64,000 nucleotides of DNA. Source: Eledone cirrhosa (Eukaryota). Position 1 is the first letter of the stretch. Every line of letters begins with the position of its first letter. A program made the position numbers and the translations under genes. The stretch spans positions 10,416,001-10,480,000 of the forward strand of contig OZ024763.1 of the NCBI GenBank assembly GCA_964016885.1, read 5' to 3'. The notes under the pieces are model-generated. The model worked only from the letters and a program-made list of their open reading frames with translations, was not told where the DNA came from and did not search any database. Positions 20,456 to 38,644 of the stretch are shown one piece after another.

Positions 20456-22532
20456 TAAATGTGTGTATATATATATATACATATATATATATATGTGTAT
20501 ATACACACACACATGTATATATGTGTCGCCAACACTGACCTTTGTGCGAAGTCTCCGCTGACTCCAGTGGACCAAATTCATTCAAGTCAGTCATTATGGA
20601 ATAGGGGGTAATGTTTGTTATAGTGTTGTTGTTGTTGTGCTGGTGTAGTTATTACTGTTATTATTGTTGTTATTATCACCAGCCGAGGTAACCATTTCTC
20701 GGAGATGTTGGCGTTTTAGCTTGCACGGCATCCATACGTCATTAACGATGAGCACGCCCTCTGCTTCCGATTGTCATTCAAGGGAGGTAACTCTGCTTGC
20801 ATGTTGCATTTTATTTGGAAATAATTGTCACCATACAACAATGCTACACACATATACTACATACCACAACACTGCACACGTATTACACCGCATTATATAC
20901 TTTACACACTCTCTCTCTATATACATCACACACCACACACTCTCTATATATATACATTACACACCATACACTTTATATATATTACACATTCTCTATAAAC
21001 ACACCACATACTCTCTCTCTATATATATATATATACTTTACACAATCTCTATACATACATCACACACTCTCTATATATACATCACACACTCTCTATATAT
21101 ACACCACACATTCTCTATATATACATCACACACCACACACTCTATATGTGTGTATATTACACACCACACTATGTATAAACTAAACACTATATATACCACA
21201 CACTGTATATACACAGTATATATACACCACACGCTATATATATACACACCAAACACTATATATACACTCCACACACAAGGCACTCTATATATAACCTATA
21301 CTTAATATCCACCACACTATATATAAACTACACATTCTGTATATACACCACTCTATAAACACACTGCACATTATATATACACAACACACTCTATATACTC
21401 ACTACACCCTATAAACATATATACACCATACACTATATAAATAAACTACACACTTTCTATATGTATACACTACTTTATATATATATACACCACACTACAT
21501 ACACACGAAATATACATTACACATGCTCTAAATATACATTACATACAAACACAGTATATATACACAATAAACATTTTATATATACATATATCATCATCAC
21601 CTTTTTACGTCCGTTCTTATACGCTAGCATGGGTTAGACGGGTTGTCCTGTTGTGGGCAGTGTCCAGTCGGCTGACCATGTCTTGCTCATACGGGAACTG
21701 ATTCTGGCTTGATTTCTACAGCTGGATGCCCTTCCTAACAACAACTACATTTACAGTGAGTGCTGGGTGCTTTTTTGCCGTGGCGCCTACACGTCCACTT
21801 TGCAGTGTGGGCTGGGTGCTTTTTTTTTGCCGTGGCACTCCCATATATATATATATATACATATATATATATGTAAATAGGGAGGAAAAACAATTATTAG
21901 GAAGAAAATCTTTTTTTTTTCCTTTATTTTTTTTCTCTTTTTTCTGGGTTAGAAAATGTTTAAAACAAAATATTTAACTTTGTGTGATGTGTTAAGGTAT
22001 TTGTTAATTTATTTATTAATTAACAAAAGCATTGATTTATTTATTTATTTAATTATTTAATAATTATCAATTACCGGTTTCAGCATTTTATGCATTTTCA
22101 AATTATGTTAGCAGGAGAGAAAAAAAATGGGGGAATTTGTATTGGTATAAAATGTAGGAGAGAAAATAAGGTGATGTTGGACATGTTATTGAAATGGGAA
22201 AGAAAGAATAATATTATTTACAAACAATATATATATATATATATATATACTCTAGAGACACTAAATATATACATTACATGCTCCATACATAGACTACAAA
22301 CATGGCAGTGTTGTTGTTGTTACATCTATGGCAGTATATATATATATATATATATATAATATAAGATCAAAAGATGGTTAAAAGAGTTCCAAGTATTTTA
22401 ACCATCTTTTGATCTTATATTATTTATACTCCAGTCCTACAAACTGTAGAGTGCTACTTATCCGATATTTGCATTGCTTTATTGTGCTACAATAAAACTC
22501 ATCTCCTACATATATATATATATATATATATA

Positions 22533-22738
22533 TAACGGAGGAAATATGGTAAGGAACCAGGTGGACCATAACGCACCAAAGTACTCAATACTTAGGGTAG
22601 TAGAGTGGGTAATAGGAACGAGTAGGACCCCGACGGCTGAGCTCAAGCCGTTTCGACGGCTAATTCTGGACTGAATTAGCCAGAATTAGCCGTCGAAACG
22701 GCTTGAGCTCAGCCATCGGGGTCCTACTCGTTCCTATA
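22533..22738 (-). mobile_element. PLE pLTR remnant (tail, partial pLTR and inverted partial pLTR), same family as 37521-39876
   Basis: Reverse copy of the 39735-39876 end plus an inverted ccagaattagccgtcgaaacggc...gttcc arm; flanked by TA repeats. Confidence 0.88.
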
Positions 22739-24866: not shown

Positions 24867-25268
24867 ATCATCATCATCATCATCATCATTATTTCATTTT
24901 ACGTCTGCTTTTCCCTGCATGCAAGCGTGGGACAGTAACTGATTCTGGCTTGATTTCTACAGCTGGATGCCCTTCCTAACACCAACCTCATTTACAGTGA
25001 GTGCTGGGTGTTTTTTTACGTGGCGCGTACACGTTCACTTTACAGTGTGGGCTGGGTGCTTTTTTGCCATGACACCTCCACGACCACTCTACAGTGGAAT
25101 GATATGGACCCCAGTCCCTATCATCTCATTTCTACAGCTGAGTAAACTGGAGCAATGTGAAATAAAGTGTCTTGCTCAAAGAAATAACACATCACCCAGT
25201 CTGAGAATTGAACTCATGACCTTTCGATTGCAAGGCCAATGCTCTAACCACTAAGCCATGTGCCTCCA
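24867..25268 (-). mobile_element. SINE family B full copy
   Basis: Similarity to 42760-43105, (CAT)n tail. Confidence 0.88.
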
Positions 25269-25287
25269 TATATATATATATATATAT

Positions 25288-25432
25288 AACGAAGGAGGTG
25301 TGGTAAGGAACCAGATGAACCATAACGCACCAGAGTATTCAATACTTAGGGTAGTAGAGAGGGTAATAGGAAAATGTTTAATCCCGACGGCAGAGCTCAA
25401 GCCGTTTTGACGGCTATTTTGGGACTAAATTA
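25288..25432 (-). mobile_element. Diverged PLE pLTR/tail fragment
   Basis: aacgaaggag..ggaaccagatgaaccataacgcacc..gagctcaagccgttt. Confidence 0.8.
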
Positions 25433-25476
25433 GAATTTTTAGCGTTTTTGCTCGCCTGTTCAACACTGACAAAGGA

Positions 25477-32185: not shown

Positions 32186-33304
32186 TTCTGTTGTGAGATG
32201 GGTTCTGTTGTGAGATGGCCTGTCCCTCCTCATGGTGGAGCCATCCAGTCCCACACCATAAATCTGGTTGCTGTTAGGAACAGCAACCAGCTGTAAAATA
32301 CCTGGCCAAATTTACAAACCTCGCTGAAGTAAGGTGCAACAAGGCCAGACTTGCCTCCCGGTGTGGATGAGTCGTCTAACCCATGCAAGCTTGGAAGAAT
32401 TGACACTAAACAGAAATGGTGATGATGATATATATATATAAAGCAGTTATGTTTTCTATTAACAGAAATATTGTGATGACTTGTCAGGACACAGGCGTAG
32501 AGCCCTACTGATGGAGGCACAGTTCCCCTACCATTGACCTGATCATAAGTTCCTAGGTTAACAAGTACCAAAAACTGAGACAACTGTTTATAGGTTCCCT
32601 TTTCACCACAATCACCATTTTTGCTTCCCAAATTGATCTTTGCATAATCCTACATGGGAGGCTGCCAGATACTATGCCTTGCCAAAGGGCAGCTTGGGGT
32701 TTGGTCCAGGGCTACTTATTCAATATATTCACAGCTAGCCTTCATATCTGAAGGTTGTTCCTCTATCTACCACCTGAGGACCTGATGTTTTGGGAGTTAT
32801 CTTCTCCACAAACACTAATTTATTTAAGCAAATAAATCGCTCTACGACTCACACCTTCACCTTTCTGACATCATATGGTATAGGAGGCTCACATTAGCTG
32901 GGCATGTGAAACATCACAATGAACCTGCTGGCAGGGTTCTTTTCTGGAAACCTGATGTGTGCAGATCAGTTGGGAGACCAACTACCACCCTAAGGATGTT
33001 CTTGAAGATGTCACTGGGTTGGAAGCAGGGGAATTCAGATGGCAATGTTGGACAGTTTAAATAAATGTATGCATATATATATATATATGGATCAAAAGGA
33101 GTTAACCAATGCATGAGTAAATTTGATGAAAAATAACGATATATATATGCATATGTATATATATATATATAAGTGTGTACATATATATATATGCATATGT
33201 ATATATATATATATGTGAGTGTGTACATATATATATGCATATATATATATATATGTGAGTGTGTACATATATATATGCATATATATATATATATATATAT
33301 ATAT

Positions 33305-33417
33305 AACGAAGGAAATGTGGTAAGGAACCAGGTGGACCATAACGCACCAAAGTACTCAATACTTGAGGTAGTAGAGTGGGTAATAGGAACCAGTAAGACC
33401 CCGGGGTCTTACTGGTT

Positions 33418-33422
<5 letters not shown>
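33305..33422 (-). mobile_element. Minimal PLE remnant: tail plus perfect 40-bp palindrome
   Basis: ataggaaccagtaagacccc|ggggtcttactggttcctat; same family as 37521-39876. Confidence 0.85.
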
Positions 33423-33464
<42 letters not shown>

Positions 33465-34867: not shown

Positions 34868-35838
34868 ATATGAAATATTGAGTTATAAACTCGAAATAGT
34901 CTTTTATAGCTCAAAGAAGGGAATATTTCTGAGCCGTGTAATACAAATGAATATATGAGGGATGAATATCTATACAATTATAGAAGTGTTCAGATTGTAA
35001 ATGACCAAGTTAGCTAGGTTGAAACAATACTAATTTAACATATGGTTTGCTTGTCTCGATTTAAAATAATAAATCAATAAAAATAACAAACCTATATTGG
35101 CAATGGCCGTGATACCTGGACAAATTCTAAATCTGTTTGACAAATTTTAAATTTGTTTTGCAACAATTAAGTGAAAGTTACTATTCCTGTGCTCTTCTGC
35201 AGGTAACCAGAAATTGGTACCTTCCACTTCAAAATACTTAAGAAGACTGAGAAACATGTGTTGTTGAACGCACATGTGTCCCAGCACCTAACTCGTCTCA
35301 TATCCGTGCCGCTAAAAATAGCAGTCGGTTTTATGGGACTAAAAATTAGCTCAACGCATGGAGCCGTCAATATGAAATATTGAGTTATAAACTCGAAATA
35401 GTCTTTTACAATTAAATAGCTTAAAGAAGGGAATATTTCTGGGCCCTGTTTTTTAGTCCCATAAAACCGACTGCTATTTTTAGCGGCACGGATATGAGAC
35501 GAGTTAGGCGCTGGGACACACGTGCGTTCAACAACACATGTTTCTCAGTCTTCTTAAGTATTTTGAAGTGGAAGGTACCAATTTCTGGATACCTGCAGAA
35601 GAGCACAGGAATAGTAACTTTCACTTAATTGTTGCGAAACAGATTTAAAATTTGTCCAGGTATCACAGCCATTGCCAATATAGGTTTGTTATTTTTATTG
35701 ATTTATTATTTTAAATCGAGACAGGCAAACCATATTATGTTAAATTAGTATTTTTTCAACCTAGCTAACTTGGTCATTTGCAATCTGAACACTTCTATAA
35801 TTGTATAGATGTTCATCCCTTATATATTCATTTGTATA
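34868..35838. repeat. Terminally redundant ~500-bp unit plus ~390-bp inverted copy
   Basis: 34868-34939 repeated at 35370-35449; 34940-35345 inverted at 35449-35838. Confidence 0.85.
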
Positions 35839-36777: not shown

Positions 36778-37612
36778 AACTGCCACTTCTTTACAGGAGA
36801 GAGCCATTCCTTCAAATTTCTCCTGCTATTATGAACCACTGCCAATCACAGGCTTCTGGCCAGTTTGATGACTGAACAGACTTTGTTTAGGTCACCTTTC
36901 CTTGACCCTTCCCATGTGGTATGGTTGAGCAGTACATCCCTACAAAAGCTGCTCAGATGCTCAAGACTCTGCCGAATCATGTTGCTGTTCAGTTTACAGT
37001 GCAGCAACTTTAGGATAAGACTTGAGCCACCCACATGTAGATTTGTGACTATGTGCTTCTAACTAGTCGTGTCAGCACACATTGCCATTCCTCCACCGCT
37101 GTCGGACTTGTGAAGAAATATCTCCACATAAAGATGACAATGCTATGTGCTTGTGATAGCACCAAGTCCATCCCTGCAGCTATGTGTCTACTGACAGAAC
37201 AGTTATGAGGATCGCATGTGTTATTGTTATGGAGTTTAATCTCTACAGGGGTCTAGCTGTACTCACCATGCTTGGCTAATTGCAGGCTGGTGAGGATATT
37301 TAACCCAGTTATATATATATATCTATACATATATAGATATAGATATATATAGATATTGTTATACTTGGGGAGAGTCATATTTGTGTAATATTGCCAGAAT
37401 TAATAATTCTGGCAATATTACACAAATATGACCCTCCCCAAGTATAACAATATTTGTTTCGACACACGATTTCATATCAAAAACCTCGCAAAACTATATA
37501 TATATATATATATATATATAGGAACGAGTAGGACCCCGACGGCTGAGCTCAAGCCGTTTCGACGCCTAATTCTGGACTAAATGAACATTTTTATCCTGGT
37601 AAATGAATAGCC

Positions 37613-38644
37613 CTACAAACGTCCCTAACCCGAGTAAACTTCCTGGATGTTACCCTTGACCTCGATAATGATCTGTACTACCCATACAGGAAACCAAACG
37701 ATAACCTGCACTACATCCACCGCCGGTCAAACCATCCTAGAAACATCACCAATAACCTGGTTAAAAACATCTCCCTCCACATATCTTGTTTGTCCGCTAA
37801 TGAGCAGATATTCGATGAACATGCGCCTTATTACAACCAGGCCCTCAGGCAGAGTGGCTTCTGGGAGGAAATATCCTACTGTCCAGCTTCCATTAGCGAA
37901 ACAAGCAGGCGACACCGCCGCTCACGCAACGTAACATGGTTCAATCCTCCCCACAATGCCGAGGTGACAACTCCTATCGGGAAAATCTTCTTTAGGCTCA
38001 TCGAAAAACACTTCCCACTACAACACCGCTACCACAACATAATCAACAAAAATACCATCAAACTCTCCTACAGCACCACACCTAACTTTGCACAAAACAT
38101 CGTCTCCTCTAACAACAAAAAACTCAACCCCTATGGAAGAAATAACCTAGATAGGAGTGGAGAGCCGACCAGGTGTAACTGTCCTGTTGGATCCATTTGC
38201 CCCCTCGACAACAAATGCAGAGATCGTAATGTGATCTACCAGTGCAATGTGAGGACGGACACCTCCAACAAAGCTTATATTGGATTAACCGCTTGTGACT
38301 TCAAGACCCGGCTATACCAACACAGACATACTTTCCGAAACTTGGCCCGGCGTCACGCCACTACACTTTCGGGCCACATCTGGGACCTTAAAGATAACAA
38401 TATTACCTATGATCTCACTTGGAGCTTACTGTCCAGAGCCAACTCTTACACGGGAGGACGCCGTCCGTGTAACTTATGCTTGGAGGAAAAATTACAAATG
38501 CTGTTTTCGACGGACCAACTCCTAAACAAGAAAGACGAACTGGTAACTGCATGCAAACACAGATTGCGTAGGACTTACCTCGCCCTCAAACCCCATAATG
38601 ACCCCGGGGGGGGGGCTGTAACACCCCACTTGCGGACTTTGTAA
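37613..38644 (+). CDS. PLE polyprotein C-terminal part (RT thumb plus GIY-YIG endonuclease), probably Nematis-type; no start codon (truncated)
   Basis: VNFLDVTLDL..PYRKPN..YIH..SNHP; WFNPP..KHFP..KLSYS; CNC..CPL..C; VIY..YIGLT..FKTR..H; CNLCLEEK..LLNKKDE; uninterrupted frame. Confidence 0.9.
   Translation, partial: LQTSLTRVNFLDVTLDLDNDLYYPYRKPNDNLHYIHRRSNHPRNITNNLVKNISLHISCLSANEQIFDEHAPYYNQALRQSGFWEEISYCPASISETSRRHRRSRNVTWFNPPHNAEVTTPIGKIFFRLIEKHFPLQHRYHNIINKNTIKLSYSTTPNFAQNIVSSNNKKLNPYGRNNLDRSGEPTRCNCPVGSICPLDNKCRDRNVIYQCNVRTDTSNKAYIGLTACDFKTRLYQHRHTFRNLARRHATTLSGHIWDLKDNNITYDLTWSLLSRANSYTGGRRPCNLCLEEKLQMLFSTDQLLNKKDELVTACKHRLRRTYLALKPHNDPGGGAVTPHLRTL

Follow-up and report, generated by a model that had tools for sequence, protein, structure and literature searches.

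The window analysed here is a 64,000-nucleotide stretch of Eledone cirrhosa DNA (contig OZ024763.1, positions 10,416,001 to 10,480,000), to which all coordinates refer unless a locus is named. On its minus strand, at 33304..33422, lies a short remnant of a Penelope-like element (PLE), inserted within a (TA)n target microsatellite whose tracts flank it on the tail side (33268..33303) and on the inverted-arm side (33423..33459). Positions in the element are numbered from the cut predicted for a hammerhead motif in a longer copy, +1 being the first G past the GUC (39779) and −1 the preceding C. Read along the minus strand, the remnant runs from (TA)n through a 20-nt inverted arm (+20 to +1; 33403..33422, plus strand) and a 99-nt sense arm (+1 to +99; 33304..33402, minus strand) to the second (TA)n tract, the sense arm ending with a 79-nt one-sided tail and the inverted arm extending up to TTCCTAT, a fixed outer end of the family. 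The two arms are joined at the predicted GUC/GGGG cut and form a perfect 40-bp palindrome (33383..33422, centre 33402/33403), as the preliminary description had stated; with its 20-bp arms it is the only GC-containing perfect palindrome in the window with arms of at least 10 bp, the others having arms of 8, 9, and 9 bp. The start at the predicted site was likewise confirmed: in the longer copy GUC occupies 39776–39778 and GGGGT follows from 39779, and the minus strand of the remnant (33403–33290) aligns with 39778–39891 at 93%. The remnant's sense arm is identical to 39779–39877 at 91/99 positions, and to +1 to +99 of another copy, L318, at 99/99. A C precedes GGGG both in the native sequence and in the remnant's inverted arm; the CCCC/GGGG junction is ambiguous, since an identical sequence would result from blunt ends at +1 and from CG microhomology between two ends at −1. 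Four further family copies in the window all lack such a junction, so the single remnant proves little.

One of these four is a long, 5′-truncated copy on the plus strand (37518..39877), belonging to a different subfamily from the remnant, and it served as the reference copy. It comprises an inverted arm (37518–37612), an ORF remnant (37607–38644) encoding the end of the reverse transcriptase (RT), a Cys linker, and a GIY-YIG domain, a 3′ region, and a pLTR; its one-sided tail (39799..39877, +21 to +99) lies between the two fixed outer ends of the family, +20 for the inverted arm and +99 for the sense arm. The other three copies lie on the minus strand: a stub of the common type (22513..22737), with a sense arm from A(−41) and an inverted arm to about −38 separated by a short templated insert; an older stub (25264..25441) with a sense arm alone, starting near −45 to −55; and a tail-less arm (46974..47016) from about −9 to +20, flanked by TA runs. 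Genome-wide, the tail pattern gave 26,223 exact matches, hence at least 26,223 copies.

The coding region was examined in L318, in which a 3,118-bp tandem unit is present and the pLTR derives from partial tandems. Its 786-codon open frame, read by eye, contains what we take to be RT motifs (FDIESYY, YRDDGL, FLDVTL) followed by a presumed C-terminal GIY-YIG endonuclease (VIY...YIG). A Pfam search of the family ORF returned no match, and 660 homologues of the L318 ORF, mostly unnamed, were found at E ≤ 1e-20. Where the CCHH motif of EN+ PLEs has two cysteines between GIY and YIG, one Cys was seen by eye between VIY and YIG in P0001, followed by more His and Cys residues, and a zinc-finger-like Cys motif, CNC-x4-C-x5-C, occupies the linker between RT and endonuclease, ahead of the latter. 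Such a motif in this linker is given as a trait of the Neptune/Nematis clade in the consulted part of PMC8557442. By its sequence features (RT and GIY-YIG, pLTR, inverted arm, one-sided tail) the family is identified as an endonuclease-containing (EN+) PLE, and it fits the Neptune/Nematis type as that source describes it, judged by the Cys motif. A non-LTR retrozyme, with tandem non-coding units and complete hammerheads, was not seen among the 30 cut-site palindrome loci sampled, all 30 being single stubs without a complete ribozyme.

Several other features were observed in and around these copies. Eight of 29 long copies (L006, L008, L013, L014, L015, L020, L023, and L025) end within 38996–39067, either at a poly-G tract (39009–39025) or immediately 3′ of it, and the tract is a possible RT block. 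Diverged hammerhead-like pLTR fragments, from older related families, adjoin young copies in the upstream flanks of L056 and L087. The window also contains two more fold-back (self-inverted) inserts that are unrelated to the pLTR (34941–35837 and 37353–37453), and several GC-richer tandem arrays with units of about 30–96 bp (40492–41600 and 59795–62530).

The long copy carries in its pLTR a hammerhead motif of type I (39688..39783, plus strand), with the cut predicted at 39778/39779. Stem I pairs ACCCC (39688–92) with GGGGT (39779–83), stem II pairs CGGCUA with UAGCCG, and stem III has 6 bp; the core consists of CUGAGAA (39693–99), with a C3·A8 mismatch, GAAA (39756–59), and GUC (39776–78). 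A C3·A8 core is expected to be weak. The preliminary description had used this copy as its reference and had placed GUC/GGGGT correctly, but the core is mismatched and the unconstrained best fold differs from a hammerhead. By contrast, L318 carries the core UUGAGAA, that is U3·A8, and its unconstrained best fold is identical with the hammerhead-constrained fold (−23.8 kcal/mol). Together with its C3·A8 core, the reference copy falls into a group that we call subfamily A; the hammerhead was the best fold in none of the 18 distinct subfamily A sequences folded, and pair probabilities for stems II and III were 0.5–0.9 in the GAT type, to which L318 belongs, versus 0.0–0.3 in C3 copies. Genome-wide, 4,333 arms contain the motif's 5′ half, and among the first 100 listed, scored by eye, 80 were U3·A8 and 20 C3·A8. 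In an unbiased sample of arms, those readable at both ends combined the remnant's marker with U3·A8 in 15/15 cases and a second marker with U3·A8 in 4/4, and subfamily A included five C3·A8 and three U3·A8 arms.

The U3·A8 arms thus contain the type I core in sequence (N3-UGA-N-N8-A ... GAAA ... UH with a Watson–Crick 3–8 pair), and three stems are predicted around it. Cores with U3-A8 are natural and active in vitro according to the portions consulted of PMC3088659 and PMC4209133, and the C3G/G8C result in the available text of PMC11167929 also underlies the view of C3·A8 as weak. Rfam searches of the window and of the U3·A8 motif gave no match at the gathering score or at E ≤ 10, possibly because of the long loop II and the U3·A8 pair. 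Within the young family, covariation analysis revealed one-sided changes only and no double compensatory change. In the remnant's subfamily, ACCAG in loop II (L318:3332–3336) is complementary to CUGGU in an internal loop of stem I (3398–3402), a possible loop I–loop II tertiary pairing, to judge from its sequence, that is absent with the other markers. The subfamily with the mismatched, misfolding C3·A8 core (39693–39699) has thousands of copies, and an intact ribozyme is therefore seemingly unneeded for spread.

We mapped arm ends in an unbiased sample, namely the first 100 listed of the at least 26,223 tail matches, all on contig C1; for a few inverted arms, internal indels caused the automated mapping to underestimate their length. 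Most ends fell at a main 5′ wall of the family (39736..39742, plus strand; loci L031–L117): 57 of the 100 sense arms ended at −33 to −47, nine beyond −47, and three at −1 to +2, and among the inverted arms, found in 75 copies, 55 ended at −33 to −47 and four at −1 to +2. The commonest end was A(−41), reached by 11 sense and 16 inverted arms, and no perfect cut-site palindrome occurred among these 100 copies. A(−41) corresponds to 39738 and lies inside hammerhead loop II, within TTAGTCC (39736–39742), which we take to be an initiator-like word. The sequence evidence suggests that the wall is likely a transcription start inside loop II, at which the cDNA runs off, and that this run-off likely accounts for miniature fold-back stubs, nearly identical to one another and numbering well above ten thousand. 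The base at −42, tabulated in 60 short arms as a check for a cap-derived G, was T in 30, C in 15, G in 12, and A in 3. A splice acceptor (TTTAG/) was rejected as the source of the wall: the AG is retained and there is no constant upstream exon. A precedent for an internal promoter is the Penelope element of Drosophila virilis, for which the part of PMC2377424 available to us places the transcription start within the pLTR. Six copies (L327, L334, L335, L342, L343, and L346) begin either at the −41 wall or close to the cut, extend a short distance into the ORF, and then adjoin another piece of pLTR, and we read them as serial template jumps; L334 has an additional G preceding A(−41).

A second, smaller peak was detected at the predicted cut. 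A pattern selecting sense arms that break between −9 and +5 gave 1,710 matches, versus 16,368 read-through arms. Of the first 100 of these matches, 99 were recovered, and after removal of 30 that read through or ended beyond −9 and of one slippage case, 68 ends were left: four at +5, one at +4, three at +3, five at +2, 22 at +1, nine at −1, one at −2, four at −3, two at −4, seven at −5, one at −6, eight at −7, and one at −9. The excess at +1 (22/68 within a 14-nt window) has a binomial p of 1e-9 against a uniform distribution, and the nine ends at −1 approximate the share of true +1 ends that would match the C by chance or overlap. When three non-native bases were demanded ahead of the arm, clean starts genome-wide numbered 254 at +1 compared with 23 at −4, an 11-fold difference that rests on this one control position and on a control pattern 4 nt longer. 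The inverted arms behaved similarly: the corresponding break pattern gave 1,583 matches, and in the rows read by eye, 32 read-through, slippage, or duplicate rows were dropped and 68 ends kept, with 16 at +1 and 10 at −1 (p = 2e-5). Sense arms starting at −1 to +2 had a partner ending at −1 to +3 in 12/25 cases, compared with 4/75 in the unbiased sample and 4/23 for other nearby breaks. The base preceding G+1 in the 22 +1 ends was T in 16, A in four, and G in two; decay of a CpG was rejected as the source of the peak, as such decay at −1 was seen in only 4/62, too rarely for T in 16/22. Scaled up, the +1 class comprises about 380–535 sense arms or 2–3% of arms, a rough figure because the patterns differ. 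The preliminary description had expected a peak of truncation points at ggggt and had named a uniform distribution as the contrary outcome; the ends are far from uniform in both the unbiased 100 and the 68-end window, and the peak is present and sharp (22/68; 254 versus 23), but it is minor, the main peak lying at about −41.

The junctions in this class are varied. Where both arms stop at +1, they may be separated by non-templated spacers (TA, TT, AA, CTG, AAG, AAGTT, or AGTAAG), and copies without any inverted arm also begin at +1. Among the first 100 of the 254 clean +1 starts, 31 read CC-A/T-GGGG, 14 read TAT-GGGG with a direct join to the TA target, 14 read TCT-GGGG, consistent with GG microhomology to an arm ending at −38, and four represent a lost C. 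Perfect palindromes on the CG of the cut site gave 95 pattern matches at 94 loci genome-wide. At other CGs, perfect palindromes were absent at −19/−18, where a 6-nt stem III overlap competes, and were found at 38 loci at −27/−26, nearer the main wall. All 30 cut-site palindromes sampled share the remnant's anatomy; their flanks differ and they bear several subfamily markers, which points to many independent events. The preliminary description had conceded that cccc/gggg microhomology alone could explain the junction; for the family this explanation fails, given the many joins in which non-templated bases intervene or an inverted arm is missing. As the 38 loci indicate, a CG palindrome class arises without any cut, and the remnant may belong to such a class.

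The relation between core genotype and end position was examined by counting subfamily A, about half of which is C3·A8 and misfolds, by eye, with its frequency among read-through arms as the reference (34/100, the first 100 of 16,368; 28/96 among whole-motif arms). Subfamily A was depleted among cut-site palindromes (14/95; Fisher p = 0.003 against 34/100 and 0.02 against 28/96) and among rows with a one-base spacer (4/31; p = 0.025 against 34/100), and made up 11/23 at the control position −4. Its share of 15% among palindromes approximates the 13/80 expected were only U3·A8 copies cutting. The depletion was absent among +1 ends as a whole (8/22, p = 0.8) and among clean starts (25/100, the first 100 of 254, p = 0.21). 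Overlaps specific to subfamily A inflate its share there, and the depletion emerges only once rows of the microhomology and deletion types are removed, by a division drawn post hoc and by eye. The subfamilies also differ beyond the core. The evidence for an effect of core genotype on the +1 class is suggestive rather than decisive.

Taken together, the end positions make it probable that the +1 class records self-cleavage of the hammerhead, the 3′ product serving as RNA template. By analogy with the anole element, as described in the consulted text of PMC11167929, the element's protein would cut both strands of the TA target and prime two cDNAs at RNA sites +99 and +20, and both cDNAs would then be extended until the template physically ends at its 5′ side. 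In most copies this end would be the transcription start at −41, inside the ribozyme; such an RNA, missing stem I as well as the CUGA half of the core, could not cut in cis. RNAs reading through the whole pLTR would hold a full ribozyme, and a minority of them would be cut, the 5′-OH product retaining both initiation sites and yielding +1 stubs. The two cDNA ends would be joined bluntly, via CG microhomology, or with 1–6 added bases. A check of 22 tail-to-ORF matches (21 loci) found no long copy starting at +1: 11 loci have a whole upstream pLTR, three begin at the −41 wall and contain short pieces of the ORF, and the remaining loci are rearranged, one having a cut-site palindrome joined to another piece. 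Since no such long copy was found and thousands of arms cross the whole hammerhead motif, cutting would be partial rather than obligatory. The ribozyme is therefore likely, on this sequence evidence, a leak or brake whose products are dead stubs, and not an obligatory maker of templates. As to the remnant itself, which the preliminary description had regarded as a fossil of the cleavage product, one copy is insufficient, but the statistics of the family lend support, and we favour, with modest confidence, the view that this very copy records ribozyme cleavage.

A sequence or structure stop, or an end-joining preference, at the 5′ edge of GGGG could place ends at +1 with no RNA cleavage, by RT falling off as it leaves the G run or when it reaches the foot of stem III, or by repair that trims to the GC clamp. 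The +1 position does edge the only G4 run between −41 and +99, for which no like-for-like control exists, with a pyrimidine ahead of it and stem III beginning at −2; GG and CG microhomologies explain part of the rows, and the 8/29 long copies ending near the poly-G tract of the 3′ region would fit such a stop. However, the ends associated with that tract lie mostly 3′ of it and are scattered across 70 nt instead of sharing a single base. In the predicted fold of an RNA starting at −41, the G run is paired whereas C(−1) is mostly not, and a stop caused by structure would be expected before the G run rather than after it, and a stop at stem III should leave C(−1) copied, whereas 22 ends lack it and nine, about the chance share, have it. 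The two arms moreover coincide, copies with no inverted arm also start at +1, and subfamily A has the same G run yet fewer palindromes. We regard such a stop as unlikely.

In the snap-back route proposed by the preliminary description, a single cDNA of the cleavage product would fold back and copy 20 nt of itself. Perfect spacer-less palindromes and short-loop hairpin junctions do occur, and self-priming was proposed for PLE palindromes in the consulted part of PMC3846280. Against this, the outer end of the inverted arm stays at +20, nearly without exception, whatever the junction. Comparing the reach of the arms in 75 copies, the inverted arm extended more than 3 nt further 5′ in 22, several by 40–80 nt, which a fold-back of the tail-bearing cDNA could give only with later deletion; the reverse held in 20, and the arms ended within 3 nt of each other in 33. 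In another PLE, two RT initiation sites were used and both target strands were extended in vitro, according to the available text of PMC11167929. The route is accordingly disfavoured, and we consider it quite unlikely; two separately target-primed cDNAs joined at their 3′ ends are the likely origin of the palindromes as judged from the arms.

Alternatively, G+1 might be a weak second transcription start (pyrimidine–purine, C/G), with cDNA run-off at a capped end that happens to coincide with the predicted cut. The −41 wall indicates that run-off at an RNA start is a normal fate in this family, and a fixed RNA end would account equally well for the concordance of the two arms. Coincidence with the cut to the base would nevertheless be required, the surrounding sequence is not initiator-like, and the association with core genotype would go unexplained; nor is there an excess of a cap-derived G (T 16, A 4, G 2), an argument weakened by the −42 counts at the main wall. 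A second start at this base seems decidedly improbable. Ordinary random truncation, with junctions set by CG or CCCC/GGGG microhomology and no special site, could produce the 38 perfect palindromes on another CG and is compatible with a 2-nt CG overlap at the remnant's junction, where it keeps some plausibility for that copy, but it is very improbable overall and largely refuted for the family by the 11-fold local excess of clean starts, the spacer-bearing joins at the same base, and the absence of palindromes at the intermediate CG, although the 6-nt stem III overlap competes there.

Returning to self-cleavage, a tentative joint reading, to which we give somewhat less than an even chance, is that the DNA of the family records two RNA 5′ ends, one from a start inside the hammerhead, which would disarm the 5′ ribozyme, and the other from a cut in read-through RNA, which would lead to stubs; the genome's natural comparison of wild-type with core-mutant copies would then show cutting in the germ line and a brake on transposition. 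There is no in vivo evidence for PLE hammerheads according to the accessible text of PMC4209133, and their function is called unclear in that of PMC8557442. A base-exact excess of heritable insertions at the predicted bond, with concordant arms, would constitute in vivo evidence both for cutting by the ribozyme and for reverse transcription of its 5′-OH product. Cutting would not be the main route, as the majority of templates terminate 41 nt upstream and the long copies are of the read-through kind. Mapping the ends of stubs offers a cheap assay for any genome rich in PLE copies, and the C3·A8 and U3·A8 subfamilies provide ready-made test and control RNAs. The two-armed layout is already known for PLEs; we found no PLE paper reporting a base-exact secondary peak at a hammerhead cut, subscription journals and supplements aside, and the part consulted of a preprint (10.64898/2026.07.22.740005) has nothing on insertion ends.

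The family shares with the complex insertions of EN+ PLEs (Craig et al. 2021, PMC8557442; Arkhipova et al. 2013, PMC3846280), as far as the consulted text of these papers extends, an inverted, truncated 5′ arm, a palindromic junction, a one-sided tail, a (TA)n target, partial tandems (here in L318), and RT with GIY-YIG. The tail is 30–40 nt in those insertions and 79 nt here, and the mapping of junctions to two fixed RNA positions (−41 and +1) is undescribed in the same portions of both papers. With the Anolis Poseidon element PAc studied in vitro (Frangieh et al. 2024, PMC11167929, in the text available), it probably has in common a pair of internal RT initiation sites on either side of the tail and the cutting and extension of both target strands; in each, the hammerhead lies a short way upstream of the tail, close to where the ORF begins. 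The PAc ribozyme needed protein and was dispensable for insertion in vitro, and no RNA-seq reads from the cut were reported there, whereas here a few percent of genomic arms start exactly at it. Like PLE hammerheads, among them the U3-A8 variant of Schistosoma Cercyon (Cervera and de la Peña 2014, PMC4209133, in part), the motif is of type I, lies in the pLTR, and has a U3-A8 core, a short stem I, a long stem II, G10.1-C11.1, and a palindromic loop 3; unlike the hammerheads in the sections consulted, it has a stable 6-bp stem III and a loop II of 37–40 nt, and monomeric folding is predicted. In the D. virilis Penelope element (Schostak et al. 2008, PMC2377424, in part), the transcription start lies upstream of the intron and hammerhead, whereas here it would lie inside loop II. 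Finally, in R2 elements with an HDV-like ribozyme (Eickbush et al. 2013, PMC3774820, in the portion available), genomic 5′ junctions also follow the cut site; there the cut defines the full-length template, whereas in this family it would mark a minority of dead stubs.
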